A stretch of 64,000 nt of DNA from an uncultured Acidobacteriota bacterium (GTDB lineage Bacteria > Acidobacteriota > Thermoanaerobaculia > Multivoradales > SZUA-115), in the NCBI GenBank assembly GCA_963805975.1, contig CAWDVR010000004.1, positions 224,001 to 288,000 of the forward strand, given 5' to 3'. The position numbers and the translations under genes were made by a program. The notes under the pieces are model-generated. The model saw only the letters and a program-made list of their open reading frames with translations, ran no database searches and was not told the origin of the DNA. Positions 22,178 to 35,605 of the stretch are shown here, piece by piece (the first letter of the stretch is position 1; the number at the start of each line of letters is the position of its first letter).

Positions 22178-24487
22178 ATGACACGCCCCACCCTTCCTCC
22201 GCTCGTCCCGGCGCTGCTCCTCGGCGCGCTGCTCGTCGTCGGGCTCGTGGGGCGCCCGGCGGCGGGCACCACCTACGCCATGGTCTCGGACGCCGAGCTG
22301 GTAACGCAGGCCGCGGTGATCGCCGAGGTGGAGGTGCTGGGCTCGGCCGCCGCCGCGGACGCCGCCATTCCCTCGACCGACTACCAGGTCGCCGTGCTCC
22401 GGGTGCTCAAGGGGGCCACCGCCGGCCCGAATGCCACGGTGCGGGTGCCGGGCGGGGTGTCGGCGGAGGGCGTGGGCTACCGGGTGTGGGGTGCCCCGGC
22501 TTTCGCTCCCGGCGAGCGGGCCCTCCTCTTCCTGCTGCCGGCCGCGGACGGCGCCTACCGCATCCTCCATCTCCTGCTCGGCGCCTTCCACGAGGTCGAG
22601 CTCGGTGGGCGCAAGCTGGCGCTGCGCGATCTCTCGGGAGCTACCGAGGCGAGCTTCGACCGGGAAGGCCGGCTGCTCCTCGAGGAACGCCCCACCGACC
22701 TGCCGCGCGATTTCGAGGCCTTCTCGCGCTGGATCTCGACCGGTGCAGGAGACCGCGTCGGCTACTTCGTCCACGACAAGAGCGGGGCGCTCGACGACGC
22801 GATCGCTTCCTACACTTTTCTCACCGACCCCAACGACGGCGGGCGCATCCGCTGGTTCGGCTTCGAGCAGGGCGACACCATCGGCTGGCAGGCGGACAGC
22901 CGCGGACAGCCGGGCTTGGCGGGCGGCGGCTTCTCCGAGCTCCAGCGGGCGATCGCGGCCTGGAACAACGACCCTTCGTCGATCGTCCGCTACGGCTGGA
23001 GCGGCACCACCAGCTCGCTCGCCACTCGCTGCGCACCGCCTTTCGGGCTGGGCAAGCTGGTGTTCGAGGACCCGGTCAACGAGATCGGCGGCGCCTACGG
23101 CTGCAGTGGCGGCATCCTCGCCCAGGGCGGCCCCTGCTACCAGCTCAGCTTCGCTTCCTATCGCGGGACCAACTACCACCCGGCGGTGGACGCGCACATC
23201 GTCACCAACGACGGCCTCACCTGCTTCTTCGACCAGAGCGCGAGCCCAGGGAAGGCCGCGGAGGAGCTCTTCGCCCACGAGCTGGGCCACACGCTGGGCT
23301 TCGGGCACTCCGCGACCCGGCAGGCGCTGATGCACGCCTTCATCCACGACGACGGGCGCGGGGCGCAGCTCCACGCCGACGACCGCGCCGGCCTGGCCGA
23401 GGTCTACGGCAACGGCACCACGCCTCCTCCTCCGCCCCCGCCCACCCCTGCCGCTCCCAGCCAGCTCGTGGCGGCGGCGCTCTCCACCACCCAGATCCGT
23501 CTCACCTGGCGCGACAACGCCGGCAACGAGTCCGGCTACCGCGTGGAGCGACGGGGCTACGCCGGCTTCTCCGAGATCGCCTCGCTGCCGGCGGGTGCCA
23601 CGAGCTTCACGGTTTCGGGCCTCTCTCCGGCCACGCCCTACGAGTTCCGGGTGCGGGCGGTGAACGCCCAGGGCTTCTCGGCCTTCTCGAACGTCGGCGC
23701 CGCCGTCACGCGTGGCGTCCTCGGCCCCTGCGTGGCCAACGCCACCACGCTCTGCCTGCTCTCCGGGGCGGTGCGCGTCGAGGTCGACTGGAAGAACCAG
23801 CACGGCGGCGGCGCCCTGGGCACCGGCCGCGCGGTGCCGATGGGCAACAAGAGCGGCTCGTTCTGGTTCTTCAGCCCGGACAACATCGAGCTCCTGGTCA
23901 AGGGGCTCGACGGCGGGCCGCTCAACGGCTACTACTGGTTCTTCTACGGCGCGCTCTCGGACGTCGAGTACTGGGTGCGCGTTACCCAGACGGCGACCGG
24001 CGAGGTGGCCGTGTACCACAACCCTCCGGGCCAGATCTGTGGCGAAGGCGACGTGGGGGCCCTGGCCAAGGCGGACGATGGCGCGGTCTTCGCTCTTCCC
24101 GACGAGGCGTCCGCCGCGTTCGCAGACCTGCCGGCCGGAGCCCCAGGTCCTTGCGCGGCGGGCCCCGAGGCGCTCTGCCTGCTGGGAGGCCGTTTCGAGG
24201 TCCGGGTCAACTGGCGCGACCACAGGAACGGCGGCGCGGGGACCGGCAAGCGGGTCACCGTGTCCGACCGCAGCGGCTACTTCTGGTTCTTCAACGCCGA
24301 CAACCTGGAGCTCGTGGTCAAGGCCCTGGACGGCCGCGGCCAGAACGGGCACTTCTGGTTCTTCTACGGCGCGCTCTCGGACGTCGAGTACACCCTTCGG
24401 GTGCGCGACACGGTGACCGGCGCCACCCGCCTCTACAACAACCAGGCCGGCGAGATCTGCGGCGAGGGCGACGTCGAAGCCTTCTGA
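22178..24487 (+). CDS. Secreted metzincin (matrixin/M10-like) protease with FN3 domain and two tandem C-terminal repeat domains
   Basis: Signal peptide, HELGHTLGFGH and ALM Met-turn, Pro-rich linker, FN3 (PSQL...LTWRDN...YRVER...YEFRVRA) and two repeats of about 110 aa. Confidence 0.85.
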   Translation: MTRPTLPPLVPALLLGALLVVGLVGRPAAGTTYAMVSDAELVTQAAVIAEVEVLGSAAAADAAIPSTDYQVAVLRVLKGATAGPNATVRVPGGVSAEGVGYRVWGAPAFAPGERALLFLLPAADGAYRILHLLLGAFHEVELGGRKLALRDLSGATEASFDREGRLLLEERPTDLPRDFEAFSRWISTGAGDRVGYFVHDKSGALDDAIASYTFLTDPNDGGRIRWFGFEQGDTIGWQADSRGQPGLAGGGFSELQRAIAAWNNDPSSIVRYGWSGTTSSLATRCAPPFGLGKLVFEDPVNEIGGAYGCSGGILAQGGPCYQLSFASYRGTNYHPAVDAHIVTNDGLTCFFDQSASPGKAAEELFAHELGHTLGFGHSATRQALMHAFIHDDGRGAQLHADDRAGLAEVYGNGTTPPPPPPPTPAAPSQLVAAALSTTQIRLTWRDNAGNESGYRVERRGYAGFSEIASLPAGATSFTVSGLSPATPYEFRVRAVNAQGFSAFSNVGAAVTRGVLGPCVANATTLCLLSGAVRVEVDWKNQHGGGALGTGRAVPMGNKSGSFWFFSPDNIELLVKGLDGGPLNGYYWFFYGALSDVEYWVRVTQTATGEVAVYHNPPGQICGEGDVGALAKADDGAVFALPDEASAAFADLPAGAPGPCAAGPEALCLLGGRFEVRVNWRDHRNGGAGTGKRVTVSDRSGYFWFFNADNLELVVKALDGRGQNGHFWFFYGALSDVEYTLRVRDTVTGATRLYNNQAGEICGEGDVEAF

Positions 24488-30017: not shown

Positions 30018-30047
30018 GGAATGTCTTACCAGCATTCGCCCACGGCC

Positions 30048-30656
30048 ATGCCCGCACTCACCTCCCACCGTCCACTGACCGCGCTCCTACACCAGTGGAC
30101 CGGGGGTGACTCGCAAGCCGTCGACCGCGTGCTGCCGCTGGTCTACGAGGAGCTCCACCGCATTGCGGCCCGCGAGTTCCGCCGCGAGCGGTCCCAGCAC
30201 ACGTTGCAGGCCACCGCCATCGTGCACGAGGCCTACATGCGGCTGCGCAACGTGCACGGCGTCACCTGGGACAGCCGCCAGCAGTTCTTCGGTTTCGCCG
30301 CGCACCTCATCCGCCGCATCCTGGTCGAGCACGCGCGGACCCGCGGGCGGGTCAAGCGCGGCTCCGGCTACCAGCGGGTCACTCTCGCCGAGGCGCAGGC
30401 CCTGGCGGCGAGCCGCCCGCCGGACCTCCTGGCGCTGGACGACGCCCTCACCGCCCTGACCGAGCTCGACGAGCGCAAGGCGACGGTCGTCGAGCTGCGC
30501 TTCTTCGGCGGGCTGACCACCGAGGAGACGGCGGCGGTGCTCGGCGTCTCCTCCGAGACGGTGGGTCGCGAGTGGCGGCGCGCCAAGGCCTGGCTCTTCC
30601 AGCAGCTCGCCGCGCCCGTGGAGGCGGCCCCGGCGGAGGTCGCCCATGGAGCCTGA
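30048..30656 (+). CDS. ECF sigma factor, kinase-associated TIGR02999/ECF43 type
   Basis: Motifs LVYEELHRIA, HTLQATAIVHEAY, LDDAL, VVELRFFGGL and REWRRAKAWL. Alternative start at 30021. Confidence 0.9.
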   Translation: MPALTSHRPLTALLHQWTGGDSQAVDRVLPLVYEELHRIAAREFRRERSQHTLQATAIVHEAYMRLRNVHGVTWDSRQQFFGFAAHLIRRILVEHARTRGRVKRGSGYQRVTLAEAQALAASRPPDLLALDDALTALTELDERKATVVELRFFGGLTTEETAAVLGVSSETVGREWRRAKAWLFQQLAAPVEAAPAEVAHGA

Positions 30657-33471
30657 GCGCTGGGGGGAGGTCGACGCCCTCTTCGCCGCCGCCCTCGAGC
30701 GCCCGCCCCAGGACCGACCCGCCTTCCTCGACGCCGCCTGCGGCCAGGGTGAGCTGCGGCGCTCGGTCGATCGCCTGCTGGCGGCCGACGACCGGGCAGG
30801 CAGCTTCCTCGAGCGCCCGCCAGCCGCCGATCTCGCTCGGGTCGAGGCCGGGGAGGAACCCGCTGCCGGCGGCGTCTTCGGCCCCTACCGGCTCGAAGAG
30901 GTGATCAGCCGGGGCGGCATGGGAACCGTCTACCAGGCGATCCGCGACGACGGCCAGTTCGAGCGCCGCGTCGCCCTGAAGCTCCTGCACGGCGGCTGGC
31001 GCCATCCCGAGATCCGGCAGCGGTTCCTCTCCGAGCGCCAGATCCTGGCCCGCCTGGAGCACGCCAACATCGCCCGCCTCTACGACGGCGGCGAGTCGGA
31101 GAGCGGCGTGCCCTACCTGGTGATGGAGCTGGTCGAAGGCCTGCCCATCGACGAGTACTGCGACCGCCACCGGCTGACCATCGAAGAGCGCCTGCGCCTC
31201 TTCCGGCGGCTCTCCGACGCCGTCTCGCACGCTCATCAGAACCTGCTCGTGCACCGGGACATCAAGCCCGCCAACGTGCTGGTCGGCGCCGACGGCCAAC
31301 CCAAGCTGCTCGACTTCGGGATCGCCAAGCAGCTCGAGGGTGGCGTCCTCGCGCCGCGCAACCAGACCCGGCCCAGCCTGCGGCCCATGACTCCCGGCTA
31401 CGCGAGCCCCGAGCAGGTGCGAGGGGACGCCATCACCACCGCGAGCGACGTCTATTCGTTGGGCGTGCTGCTCTACGAGCTGCTCTGCGGGCGGAGCCCC
31501 TACCGCTTGGAGACCGAGCTGCCGCACGAGCTCGAGACCGCCATCCTCACCCAGGAGCCGGAGAGGCCCAGCCAGGCCCTGGCGCGCCCGGGCGCCGGGA
31601 GCGCCGGCCAACCGCCGGCGGACGAGATCGCCGCCGCCCGGCGCGGCAGCCGGCGGGAGCTGGCGCGCCGCCTGGCCGGTGACCTCGACACCATCGTGGG
31701 CAAGGCGCTGCGCAAGGACCCGGCACGCCGCTACAGCTCGGTGGCGGAGCTCGATGCCGACCTCGAGCGCCATCTCAAGGCGTTGCCGGTGGCGGCCAGG
31801 CCCGACACCCTCCGCTATCGCAGCGCCAAGTTCGTGCGCCGGCACCGGCTCGGAGTGGGGGTCGCGGCGTTGACCGCGGTCCTCATCGCCGGCTTGGTGG
31901 TGAGCCTCTTCCGCCAGCGCGGCACCGCTCTGCGCGAGCGGGACCGCGCCGAGCTGGCGCTCAACTTCCTGATCGACACCTTCCGCGAGGCCAACCCCTA
32001 CGACGCGGGGGCCAAGGAGCTCACCGCCGTCGACGTGCTCGACCGCGGCACCGACCGCATCCGCCGCGGCCTGGCCGGCGAGCCCGAGGTGCAGGCCTCG
32101 CTGCTCGACGCCCTGGGCCAGGTCAACAACGACCTGCGGCGCATCGAGGTCGCGGAGCCGCTCCTCGAAGAGGCGCTGGCGCTGCGCCGCTGGGTCCACG
32201 GCGACCGCTCGATCGAGGCCGCCGACACCGGCGAGCACCTGGCCGAGGTGCGGGTCGCCCAGGGGCGGTTCCAGGACGCCGCCGATCTTTACCAGGAAGC
32301 GGTGGCGATCAAGCGCCAGCGCCTGGGGCCGCGCCACCTGGAGATCGCCAAGACCTTGAACGACATGGGCGTCGCGGTCGGCCAGACCGGCAAGCCGGAC
32401 CACATCGCGGCGGCCGAGGCGCTGCACATCGAGGCCCTGGACATTGCGCTCGCCACCGAGGGCCCCGACAGCCACGAAGCGGCAGACGCCCTGCACGCGC
32501 TCGCCCTCCTCGCCCGCGAGCGCGACGCGCTCGACGAGGCCGAGGTCCACGCCCGCAAGTCGCTCGCCATCCTGATGCGGAGCCTGGGCGAGGAGAACCC
32601 GGACACCACGCTGGTCGAAGGCACGCTGGGGCTGGTGCTCCTCTCCCAGACCAAGCTCCGCGAAGCCGAGCAGGTGTTCCGCCGCCTGGTGGTGACGCGG
32701 GGCAACCAGCTCGGCGAAGACCACCCGGACCTGGCGGAGAACTTCAACAACCTGGGCTCGGCCCTGCTCTTACAGGGCCGCGGCGCGGAGGCCGAGACCT
32801 ACGTGCGCCGCGCGCTGGCGCGCTACCAGCAGCAGTACGGGGAAAAGCACTTCACCGCAGCCCTGGTGCTGGGCAACGTGGCGAGCGCGCTCCTCCAGCA
32901 GGGCAGGCTCGAGGAGGCGCTGCCGGTCGCCGAGGAGACGCTCACGCTCCGCCGCGCGACTCTGGGCGACAAGAGCCTGCGCGTGGCGCAGACCCTGTTG
33001 ATGCTCTCCGAGCTCCAACGCGGCCTCGGCCGCGCCGACCTGGCGCTCGGCCACGTCGAGGGGGCGCGGGACCTCTACCTGGGCGCGCTCTCCGCCGAGC
33101 ACCCGTCGGCGGCCGGCGCCTGGACGGAGCTCGGACGCGTGCTGCTGGCGCGGGGCGACGCCGCCCAGGCCCTGCCGCACTTCGAGCGCGCCGTTCGAAT
33201 CCGCCGCGACCGCCAGCCGCCGGCCCATGCCGACCGGGCGAAGGCCGAGGCCGCCCTCGGTGCCTGCTATCTCGCTCTCGGCCGCCCGGACGAGGCCGGG
33301 CCGCTCCTTACCGGAGCGCGCTCGGTGCTGGCCGCCGAGCTCGCTCCCGAGAGCCGGGCCCTGACCGAGGTGGACGCCTGGCTCGCGGAGCTCGGTCGCC
33401 TGCAGGGTCAGCCCGTGCAGGCAAGAAAGAGCCGGGCGCGAGAAGAGGCCGGGACCACCAGACCGGGCTGA
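30646..33471 (+). CDS. Membrane Ser/Thr protein kinase with extracytoplasmic TPR repeats
   Basis: Motifs GGMGTVY, VALK, HRDIKPAN, DFG and YASPEQ, then one TM and kinesin-light-chain-like TPRs. Confidence 0.93.
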   Translation: MEPERWGEVDALFAAALERPPQDRPAFLDAACGQGELRRSVDRLLAADDRAGSFLERPPAADLARVEAGEEPAAGGVFGPYRLEEVISRGGMGTVYQAIRDDGQFERRVALKLLHGGWRHPEIRQRFLSERQILARLEHANIARLYDGGESESGVPYLVMELVEGLPIDEYCDRHRLTIEERLRLFRRLSDAVSHAHQNLLVHRDIKPANVLVGADGQPKLLDFGIAKQLEGGVLAPRNQTRPSLRPMTPGYASPEQVRGDAITTASDVYSLGVLLYELLCGRSPYRLETELPHELETAILTQEPERPSQALARPGAGSAGQPPADEIAAARRGSRRELARRLAGDLDTIVGKALRKDPARRYSSVAELDADLERHLKALPVAARPDTLRYRSAKFVRRHRLGVGVAALTAVLIAGLVVSLFRQRGTALRERDRAELALNFLIDTFREANPYDAGAKELTAVDVLDRGTDRIRRGLAGEPEVQASLLDALGQVNNDLRRIEVAEPLLEEALALRRWVHGDRSIEAADTGEHLAEVRVAQGRFQDAADLYQEAVAIKRQRLGPRHLEIAKTLNDMGVAVGQTGKPDHIAAAEALHIEALDIALATEGPDSHEAADALHALALLARERDALDEAEVHARKSLAILMRSLGEENPDTTLVEGTLGLVLLSQTKLREAEQVFRRLVVTRGNQLGEDHPDLAENFNNLGSALLLQGRGAEAETYVRRALARYQQQYGEKHFTAALVLGNVASALLQQGRLEEALPVAEETLTLRRATLGDKSLRVAQTLLMLSELQRGLGRADLALGHVEGARDLYLGALSAEHPSAAGAWTELGRVLLARGDAAQALPHFERAVRIRRDRQPPAHADRAKAEAALGACYLALGRPDEAGPLLTGARSVLAAELAPESRALTEVDAWLAELGRLQGQPVQARKSRAREEAGTTRPG

Positions 33472-33508: not shown

Positions 33509-34408
33509 CTACTCCTCTTTGCCCAGGAAGAACACGTCCACGGCTCTCGTCTCGCCGCCCGCGAGAACCACCCTGGCGTAGTAGCGCAGAGCGTTTCCGA
33601 AGCGATCGACTCGCCGGGTCTCGCGGTAGCTGAGACCGATCTCGAGCACGCCCGACTGCGCCAGCGTGCGCAGCTCCTCGGGCTGCGACCGGCCGTCGTG
33701 GTTGGCATCGCCCCAGAGCCTCAACTGGCCGAAGATGGCGTCGGCTTCCGAGATCACGCCGTCCTCATTTCCGCCGCCCACGACCAGGTCGAACTCGGCG
33801 AGAGCGATGAAGCCGTTGGGGTCGTTGGTGGGTCGCTGGTCGGTGTAGTTGCCGAACAGCTCGGTGCCGTCGTTCACCAGGCCGTCCTCGTTGCGGTCGA
33901 GCACCAGGAAGGACATGTTGGCGCGCGGATCGGTCCAGGAGAGCGTGTCCTCTTCACCATCGGCATCGATGTCGAATCGGACGCCGCGGGTGAGGTCGGT
34001 GAAGACGTCCACTTGCTTCGATCCCAGGGGAATGAGGATCGGACAGTTGTCGATCGGCGGCCGCTCGGGACCGATCATGTCGCACTGCACGGTGCACCGC
34101 GCGCTGCAGTAGGTGTTGAACGTGGGGTTGCACGGGAAGTCCACGCAGGACGACGGGTCGGCGATCTGGCTGACCGTGAAGTTGGAGAAGGTCGGGTTCG
34201 CGAGCACACCGTCGCAGCCCAGCGGCGTCCAGAAGAAGCAGTCCTCGTAGACCTTGTTGTAGCAGCGGTTGTAGGCCAGGCCGAGCCCGAGCGAGCCGCT
34301 GAAGTAAGGCCCGGCCGAAAGGATGGTGGTTCGGGTAGGTCCGGGATAAGCGTGCGCAGAGGTGCCCGCGGTCAGACAGACGGCCAGCAGCAACAAGACT
34401 CTCTTCAT
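33509..34408 (-). CDS. Secreted protein: Cys-rich N-terminal domain plus FrpC-type self-processing-module-like Ca2+-binding domain
   Basis: Signal peptide MKRVLLLLAVCLTAGTSAHA and GGAGG RBS. Eight Cys in 101 aa, then CPILI...FDIDADG...LDRNEDG...ELFG...GFIALAEFD...LRLWGDANHDGRSQPEELRTL. Confidence 0.75.
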   Translation of the reverse strand: MKRVLLLLAVCLTAGTSAHAYPGPTRTTILSAGPYFSGSLGLGLAYNRCYNKVYEDCFFWTPLGCDGVLANPTFSNFTVSQIADPSSCVDFPCNPTFNTYCSARCTVQCDMIGPERPPIDNCPILIPLGSKQVDVFTDLTRGVRFDIDADGEEDTLSWTDPRANMSFLVLDRNEDGLVNDGTELFGNYTDQRPTNDPNGFIALAEFDLVVGGGNEDGVISEADAIFGQLRLWGDANHDGRSQPEELRTLAQSGVLEIGLSYRETRRVDRFGNALRYYARVVLAGGETRAVDVFFLGKEE

Positions 34409-34526: not shown

Positions 34527-34955
34527 TCACTCGATCTCTCGCGGGTTGGCCCGGGCCTCGATCTCGAAGGGGAAGCACTGCCGCCCCGCGCGGTGAAACC
34601 AGGGAGTGGTGTCCGAGCCTCGTGACTCGCGCTCGAAGGTCGCGCAGAGCTCGTAACGCCGCTCGCCCAGGGCGCGGTACTCGTAGGTTTGCCCGGTCCC
34701 GGGGTCGCGTACCTCCACCCGCATCCACTCTTTCCCGGCCAGCTCCTCCAGCGAGGCCGGGAGACGGCCCTCCCGCTCGACGAAGATGGCGACCGCGGAT
34801 TCGATCTCGCGCAGGTGCGCGATCCGCCGGTCGTCCATGCGCCGGGCCCGCTCCTCGGAGGGTGGGCCCAGCACCAGCAGCCCACCGGCCACGGCCGCGA
34901 CCACCGCCAGCACGGCGAGACCCGCGAGGATCGTCCCTCCGCCGGGCCGCCTCAC
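34527..34955 (-). CDS. Membrane-anchored protein with pilin-like pattern (partner of the DUF5671-like protein)
   Basis: N-terminal TM, then GPP..R..R.D..R...L, LPASLEEL, DPGTGQTYEY and YELCATF. GTGA overlap with the upstream gene. Confidence 0.7.
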   Translation of the reverse strand: MRRPGGGTILAGLAVLAVVAAVAGGLLVLGPPSEERARRMDDRRIAHLREIESAVAIFVEREGRLPASLEELAGKEWMRVEVRDPGTGQTYEYRALGERRYELCATFERESRGSDTTPWFHRAGRQCFPFEIEARANPREIE

Positions 34956-35605
34956 GGCCGGATCTCCTTTTCTTCTTCGTCGCGCCGCAGGTCCCACAGG
35001 TAGTAGCCGAAGATCGAGCCGGCGATGGCTCCGACCGTCGCCGCCTTGAGCACGAAGCGGGTGGTGAGCTCACCGCCGAGGAAGCGGTAGACCAGCGAGG
35101 TGACGTCGCCGATCAGCACGCAGGCGGCGAGAAAGAGCGTCACGTAGGTGAGCCACTTGCGGATCTTCGAGGCTCGCTTGCTCGGGTCCAGGCGCAGGCG
35201 CCGGCTGACCCGCGAGGAGACGTACAGGAACACGGGGAACGCCACCACCAGCGTGGACACGGCCCAGCGGATGGCTTCCCGGGAACGTCCCGTCACCCAC
35301 TCGGCCTCCGCCGGGTCCGGGAACGCCCGGTCGACGAGCTGGAACACCAGCGCGCCGAGGTGGAAGGCGCTGGCGTAGAGGGTGCTGAAGAGCACGAGAT
35401 AGAGGAAGGCCTCGAAGGCGGACAGGTACGGCGCCGGCCGGGGCACCGGGACCGGGAACTCGACCTCCGCGAAGCCCGCCAGCGCTCCCCTCACCTGGTC
35501 GGCCGGCCAGCCCGCGGCGAGCAGCACGGCCTCGATCTCGGCCCGCGGCAGACCCCTCGACAGGCTGTCGCGGACGAATTGCTGCAGCTCGTCACTGGCG
35601 GCCAT
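34952..35605 (-). CDS. DUF5671-like membrane protein
   Basis: N-terminal LSRG...I...LLAAGW, then FLYLVLFSTLY, IRKWLTYVTLF and GELTTRFVLK. Confidence 0.75.
   Translation of the reverse strand: MAASDELQQFVRDSLSRGLPRAEIEAVLLAAGWPADQVRGALAGFAEVEFPVPVPRPAPYLSAFEAFLYLVLFSTLYASAFHLGALVFQLVDRAFPDPAEAEWVTGRSREAIRWAVSTLVVAFPVFLYVSSRVSRRLRLDPSKRASKIRKWLTYVTLFLAACVLIGDVTSLVYRFLGGELTTRFVLKAATVGAIAGSIFGYYLWDLRRDEEEKEIRP

Follow-up and report, generated by a model that had tools for sequence, protein, structure and literature searches.

A predicted secreted protein of an Acidobacteriota bacterium carries a domain with the FrpC self-processing-module fold and Cys-Pro in place of Asp-Pro

The window, by which is meant the whole stretch of 64,000 nucleotides that was analysed, carries on its reverse strand (33509-34408) an open reading frame for a 299-residue protein that translates without a stop, has a ribosome-binding motif (GGGAGG) just 5' of it and a GC3 of 0.88, and occurs as a single copy in the source genome. 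A promoter and terminator scan found none. The N-terminus has the features of a signal peptide (MKR, a hydrophobic core and AHA|Y), and inspection by eye and hydropathy are consistent with the 20-residue peptide proposed in an earlier note on this DNA, whose coordinates for a 101-residue passenger with eight Cys and for the Cys codon that follows it were confirmed. The parts of the gene, including those assigned by comparison with FrpC's self-processing module (SPM), are:

34349..34408, - strand: predicted Sec signal peptide, residues 1-20 (sequence and hydropathy, by eye)
34046..34348, - strand: passenger domain, residues 21-121, with 8 Cys (kept in five orthologues)
34043..34045, - strand: Cys122, at the place of FrpC Asp414; a predicted nucleophile that Cys parity leaves without a partner (structure match, Cys counts)
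34040..34042, - strand: Pro123, equivalent to FrpC Pro415 (model residue 103 pairs with residue 1 of the 6SJW chain)
33512..34042, - strand: SPM-fold domain, residues 123-299 (177 residues; sequence, and model against FrpC)
33536..33538, - strand: Asp291, equivalent to FrpC D579, candidate partner of Cys122 (127 of 130 representatives with Ser, Thr or Cys before the Pro)

The Cys residues lie at positions 11 (in the signal peptide), 49, 57, 65, 88, 93, 101, 105, 109 and 122. The passenger contains the motif DCFFWTPxGCDGV and a Pro-rich linker whose last residue is Asn121, and it had no Pfam match and no atlas match; of its five orthologues, the two whose loci were examined have different neighbours. 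The closest named relative of the whole protein, from the Thermoanaerobaculia, shares 65% identity, and a search of NCBIfam returned no family. Around the gene, an ECF sigma factor and a Ser/Thr kinase-TPR gene form a pair (30021-33471, + strand) that converges on it, and a DUF5671 membrane protein and a 156-residue membrane-anchored open reading frame lie upstream on the same strand (34527-35605, - strand). Both pairs were dropped as parts of a system, the DUF5671 pair not being found beside two of the orthologues.

The homology of the C-terminal domain to the SPM is far beyond chance. A phmmer search of PDB sequences returned two sequences at E ≤ 10, both of them the FrpC SPM (E 1.8e-18 and 2.8e-18), and an AlphaFold model (119-row alignment; 171 residues with pLDDT ≥90 over the module, the passenger mostly <50), compared by VIA-align, matched the SPM fold of 6SJW with a Z of 19.9 and an rmsd of 2.2 Å over 156 aligned residues, the next chain having a Z of 3.0. 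The likeness to the FrpC/ApxIVA module that the earlier note had drawn is thus borne out in both sequence and structure. Pfam 38.1 assigns the domain to PF26745 (SPM), so that membership had already been assigned automatically; a Pfam set without PF26745 gave a weak EF-hand match as its sole result.

In the model, Pro123 pairs with Pro415, so Cys122 takes the place of Asp414, and the same register offset at the far end of the domain sets Asp291 on Asp579. The Asp-Pro scissile dipeptide is therefore absent from the start of the module, where Cys122-Pro123 stands in register with D414-P415. Three EF-hand-like Ca2+ loops are kept (D171-E183, D207-D223 and D234-E245), as is the W451/W519 pair of FrpC (W158 and W232), and the cleavage-port and fifth-Ca2+ residues taken as the mark of membership (W451, L475, G477, D478, G491 and D579) are found as W158, L184, G186, G199 and D291, with D478 replaced by Asn187. 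The FrpC numbering, Ca2+ loops, Trp pair and port residues are those of Kuban et al. 2020 (PMC7078468). The motif FDIDADG, which the earlier note had taken for the first DLDGDG loop of FrpC, aligns instead with FDHNRDG inside the T430-G450 loop, described as dispensable in FrpC (PMC7078468); the equivalents of the fourth Ca2+ site (D419/D421/D423/G424 and D456) are P127/G129/K131/Q132 and M165. Judged by these substitutions, the protein and its clade have lost the fourth Ca2+ site, although Asp or Asn at position P+4 of that site is kept by 546 of the 579 family members with Ser, Thr or Cys before the Pro (S/T/C forms).

With the modules of FrpC and FrpA from Neisseria meningitidis and of ApxIVA from Actinobacillus (PDB 6SJW and 6SJX; PF26745), the domain therefore shares the fold, the Pro at the module start, the three EF-hand-like loops, the Trp pair, the port residues and the last-strand Asp. 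It differs in having Cys before the Pro where FrpC has Asp, so that no aspartic anhydride is possible, in the loss of the fourth Ca2+ site and in Asn187 where FrpC has D478, a position at which the FrpC mutant D478N is only moderately slowed (PMC7078468). Further, the module is C-terminal in a 299-residue protein with a predicted N-terminal signal peptide and no RTX Pfam match, which is not an RTX/T1SS protein, whereas in FrpC it is internal to an RTX/T1SS protein of more than 1000 residues, and here no FrpD-like partner is encoded by an adjoining gene. The protein stands outside the Asp-Pro clip-and-link class and probably works like it by other chemistry.

A profile search for the SPM returned 27,385 representatives (50% identity) at E ≤ 0.001 and 7,900 at E ≤ 1e-30. 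The best 75 genome loci all carry Acidobacteriota-type names; matches were present in 34 of 151 genomes of the class, with up to eight matches each, and in 42 of 401 genomes of the phylum at E ≤ 1e-20. Pooling proteins and loci gave 645 distinct SPM domains. Among the 619 that occur singly in their protein, the residue before the Pro is Ser (434), Thr (88), Cys (57), Asp (30) or Glu (5) in 614, giving 579 S/T/C forms, 35 Asp/Glu forms and five exceptions, three of which look truncated or frameshifted and two of which are without the Pro; Asn, Ala and Gly do not occur before the Pro in any of the 619. In proteins with several copies, only six of 26 domains keep one of the five residues, the others having P, A, K, Q, L, G or R or no Pro. 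The 120 close matches listed include 11 without the first strand, and the remaining 109 divide into Ser (53), Cys (41) and Thr (15). The pooled sample leans towards the queries, and evenly drawn genomes of the class and phylum were hence also tabulated; their 112 domains have Ser (68), Thr (17), Asp (10), Cys (8) or Glu (5) in 108 cases, with one mis-called Glu and three others. For this tabulation 76 further regions were retrieved, short fragment matches were passed over and 10 partial domains were left out. With a Ser-type RTX protein as query, and so in a sample biased to Ser, the counts were Ser (96), Asp (5), Cys (3), Pro (2) and Ala (1) with three uncalled; the RTX-side proteins that show the S/T/C class bear names from Snodgrassella, Azoarcus, Tatumella and Pseudomonas.

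Judged by these counts, Cys122 is not an isolated change. It belongs to a class in which Ser-Pro is the usual junction and Cys-Pro one variant; this class prevails among secreted Acidobacteriota proteins, whose passengers vary, and is found in RTX proteins as well. The tabulation of the residue before the Pro suggested in the earlier note therefore returns a position confined almost wholly to S/T/C and Asp/Glu, which supports the N-to-S chemistry that the note had proposed while removing the singularity of its Asp-to-Cys change. The module is used outside RTX/T1SS proteins, as had been suggested, but since the S/T/C class is common within them too, the change of chemistry is not tied to leaving RTX proteins. 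Asp-Pro and Glu-Pro modules, mostly without the last-strand Asp, also occur in Sec-type proteins of close relatives within the same taxonomic class (L088, L089, L090, L091, L184, L185, L103, L204, L205, L199 and L203), and the Glu-Pro forms suggest a glutaric-anhydride variant. SPM relatives also occur on 19 IMG/VR contigs (L107-L125), where the junctions are of S, T and D type.

The passengers bear out the idea of a variable-passenger secreted family, but the effector role suggested in the earlier note found no support in the results. A crude signal peptide was called in about 240 of 333 SPM proteins, with passengers of 5-748 residues, and 286 passengers fell into 74 single-linkage clusters (one of 150 members and 58 singletons), 269 of the 286 having at least four Cys. 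The shortest passenger (P0020) leaves about five residues between signal peptide and Ser-Pro. A HExGHxxG zinc-protease motif is present in 108 of 466 proteins with a C-terminal module, and Pfam names few passengers (subtilase, FG-GAP, glycoside-hydrolase-like and M12; six of 70 proteins with any match in one set). One C-terminal module common to many unrelated secreted passengers, with several paralogues per genome, is also the arrangement of the T9SS CTD, PEP-CTERM and sortase signals; the SPM-fold proteins resemble these but have neither a membrane anchor nor, as far as their gene neighbourhoods show, an enzyme dedicated to processing; processing would be autocatalytic.

Genes next to SPM genes were surveyed at the 75 loci. 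A secreted gene of about 260 residues lies upstream in 23 of the 75 and was considered as an FrpD-like partner, but was rejected because it goes with a single type of passenger (18 of 21 in a zinc-protease cluster), resembles the N-terminal domain of a metalloprotease in the window and has no match in the source genome at E<0.03. The metalloprotease (22181-24487, + strand) is secreted and consists of an N-terminal domain without a Pfam family, a matrixin (M10) zinc protease and Fn3; the likeness of its N-terminal domain to the gene of about 260 residues upstream of Blastocatellia zinc-protease-SPM genes (hhalign 69%, E 4e-5) suggests a pro- or inhibitor domain that is fused in one case and split in the other. 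Four families of genes of about 250-340 residues without a Pfam match lie directly 5' of SPM genes (L044:2363-3133, L034:3614-4381, L053:2056-2844 and L076:1772-2782), of which family A tracks the HExGH passengers (18 of 21) and families B-D precede diverse Cys-rich passengers. DsbA-like and thioredoxin-like genes adjoin SPM genes in six and five loci, respectively (e.g., L020:2761-3765 and L016:3814-4335), fitting disulfide-rich passengers. Across the 75 loci, no modifying enzyme turned up repeatedly as a neighbour.

Several controls bear on the residue before the Pro. A FastTree tree of 197 representatives was computed from the other columns only; on it, Cys needs 12 changes, at least six of them forced by well-supported branches, and appears to have arisen repeatedly; the clustering of Ser and Thr is not above shuffles. 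After dereplication at 70%, the column holds Cys in 20 of 243 sequences, Ala in one and Asn in none; in nine other Ser/Thr-rich columns Ala occurs 2-30 times, and Cys is among the nine commonest letters in one of the nine (2/243). Ser codons of both families are used (TCN 54, AGY 30). With crude estimates of signal-peptide ends, the number of other mature Cys is even in all 33 Cys forms and in 11 of 11 after dereplication, compared with 54 of 65 Ser forms and 19 of 30 Thr forms (dereplicated), so that the Cys before the Pro would be a free thiol; in the evenly drawn set, with equally crude calls, two were even and one odd. Degenerate copies (n = 23) keep the Ca2+ residues (91-100%) and lose the equivalents of G186 (57%), N187 (30%) and G199 (43%), which line the FrpC cleavage port; the fold can thus do without the residue before the Pro, whereas the port lining is lost together with it. 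Sorting of copies by loss of the last strand was dropped because the HMM missed this strand in Asp forms, and single- and multi-copy proteins were compared instead. Large proteins with two or three tandem SPM-fold copies lacking the nucleophile (P0345, P0347, P0348, P0350, P0354, P0384 and P0443) probably represent a structural use of the fold as a Ca2+-binding repeat.

A candidate acid/base partner for the nucleophile is Asp291, present in 127 of 130 S/T/C forms, in 10 of 33 Asp/Glu forms as aligned (14 of 33 with six rows re-registered by eye) and in 19 of 25 degenerate copies. The S/T/C forms as a whole share no His base: H237 occurs in 95% of the acidobacterial set, but RTX forms do not have it among their commonest letters. 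When position 291 was compared with the residue before the Pro over independent pairs, covariation did not reach significance (seven pairs, two or three changing the same way and none the opposite way; p 0.25). Unpaired Cys inside Asp/Glu-type modules were considered as compensatory and rejected, their positions being scattered. Pro at position -1 occurs in 34 of 210 C-terminal Ser/Thr forms, where it is not depleted, in one of 23 Cys forms, and in none of 50 RTX Ser forms or 29 Asp/Glu forms.

Since the site is held to residues with side-chain nucleophiles, a free thiol has been gained repeatedly and the restriction is relaxed in tandem copies, the position is read as still reactive. On balance, it seems somewhat probable from the residue statistics and the model that the SPM-fold domain self-processes through its S/T/C side chain on Ca2+ folding. 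Ser, Thr and Cys are the set used for N-to-O/S shifts by inteins, Hedgehog proteins, GAIN domains and Ntn hydrolases; such residues usually act by attacking the carbonyl that precedes them, and intein shifts are hindered when Pro stands at -1. As in inteins, Hedgehog Hint, GAIN, SEA and Ntn hydrolases, the three residues are interchangeable here at one junction position. The same holds for the FIIND of NLRP1 and CARD8, whose autoproteolysis also gives a new NH2-Ser-Pro end and is deficient in Ser-to-Ala mutants (PMC7483925). Because these residues form no anhydride, usually attack the preceding carbonyl and have this Ser-Pro precedent, an N-to-S shift at Asn121|Cys122 is the favoured cut, to which the larger share of the self-processing reading is given, though only tentatively. 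The protein would be exported and its C-terminal domain would fold on binding Ca2+; once folded, the domain would sever the polypeptide at the junction where the domain begins, the thiol of Cys122 taking the nucleophilic role that Asp has in FrpC. After the shift, the disulfide-rich passenger of 11 kDa would end in a C-terminal thioester, from which water would release it or which would be captured by an amine or a thiol, whether of the envelope or of a bound target. Compared with the known N-to-O/S shift domains, the SPM fold appears unrelated and has no family-wide catalytic His, and Ca2+ folding would be the trigger; none of Hint, GAIN, SEA, ZU5 or Ntn is among the 36 structural matches listed (Z ≥ 2), an absence that is not decisive.

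In favour of self-cutting, Cys122 sits, in the model, at the proven nucleophile position of FrpC. There, folding on Ca2+ puts a twist into the Asp-Pro amide, which the side chain of the Asp then attacks, and D414A abolishes cleavage (PMC7846742). Against it stand, as far as the alignments indicate, the frequency of Pro at -1 in Ser/Thr forms, given that Asp, Gly or Pro at -1 nearly stops cleavage of FrpC (PMC7846742), the want of a His base common to all S/T/C forms and the apparent loss of the fourth Ca2+ site in this clade. By analogy, the shift in particular is opposed by the strained bond of FrpC being X-Pro and not the bond preceding X (PMC7078468).

The alternative that survives best, though we think it unlikely, is a non-cleaving Ca2+-folded tail, in which the S/T/C side chain would hydrogen-bond Asp291 and cap the first strand, the domain serving as a folding, stabilising or binding tag and Asp-Pro cleavage being special to some lineages. 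The distribution of Asp291 (127/130 with S/T/C against 14/33 with Asp/Glu) is what a donor-acceptor pair would give, Asp291 persists in most degenerate copies, Ser/Thr forms tolerate Pro and Gly at -1, and the tandem copies are themselves non-reactive uses of the fold. Yet Ala and Asn, the usual substitutes for a structural or capping Ser, are absent from the single-copy domains, an unpaired Cys has been gained many times in disulfide-rich secreted proteins, and the link with position 291, which the independent pairs do not bring to significance, would suit a catalytic dyad just as well.

Less likely again, and counted as the smaller part of the self-processing reading, is a cut at the bond used by FrpC, Cys122|Pro123. 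The twisted amide would be attacked in one of two ways: the thiol would act on its own carbonyl, forming a beta-thiolactone, or Asp291 would attack and the thiol would then capture the resulting mixed anhydride, so that passenger and module end up joined by a thioester. The four-membered ring of the thiolactone would be strained, and we know of no protein precedent for it. The cut is consistent with the retention of Pro123, of the residues of the port and of N187 and D291 as fifth-Ca2+ ligands, with Asp291 being needed in S/T/C forms and variable in Asp/Glu forms (D579N is harmless in FrpC) and with the activity mostly kept by FrpC D478N (PMC7078468), and it would explain the tolerance of Pro at -1; FrpC D414A, however, is dead despite D579 (PMC7846742), and the covariation was not significant.

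Modification by another enzyme, with the folded domain presenting the residue as acceptor, appears improbable: S/T/C is also the acceptor set of O/S-glycosylation and acylation enzymes, but no modifying enzyme recurs beside the 75 loci, close relatives have Asp or Glu at the same position and the class spans both Sec and T1SS proteins. That Cys122 is simply a disulfide Cys of the passenger is very improbable, for although it abuts Cys-rich segments (a median of five Cys within the 40 residues upstream), the parity counts (33/33 and 11/11) oppose it and Cys-Pro occurs also in Cys-poor RTX proteins (three sites; background Cys 0.24%).

Published accounts describe the SPM as exclusive to RTX proteins and as an Asp-Pro device (PMC7078468), an account repeated in a review of RTX proteins (PMC3034196); Lim et al. 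2025 report the Asp-Pro bond as retained in the homologues they tested (PMC12538545), and an SPM-like region has been noted in Filifactor FtxA, the residue not being named (PMC7692872). SPMs with Ser-Pro, Thr-Pro or Cys-Pro, or SPMs in Acidobacteriota, are not described in the full-text literature searched, though subscription papers or the Pfam family text could mention them.

The SPM family is thus very large and, in the samples examined, has mostly Ser, Thr or Cys before the Pro in both Sec-type and RTX proteins, the Sec-type carriers being abundant, mostly uncultured soil-type bacteria. If the S/T/C modules do not cut, many proteins labelled 'SPM domain' are not self-processing. A broader and slightly more tentative reading than the shift itself is that the fold may host a second, probably larger self-processing class, in which a Ca2+-triggered Ser/Thr/Cys module would make a C-terminal ester or thioester of its passenger (zinc proteases, hydrolases, disulfide-rich mini-proteins or RTX N-termini) and ligate it to the envelope or a target, an enzyme-free sorting system in thousands of proteins of Acidobacteriota and Proteobacteria of which the Asp anhydride of FrpC would be one offshoot. 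If the S/T/C modules do cut, a fold unrelated to those of inteins and Hedgehog proteins would be carrying out chemistry like theirs; the modules would be a candidate route by which Acidobacteriota release or anchor secreted cargo, and protein thioesters for ligation might be obtained from them with Ca2+ as the switch.
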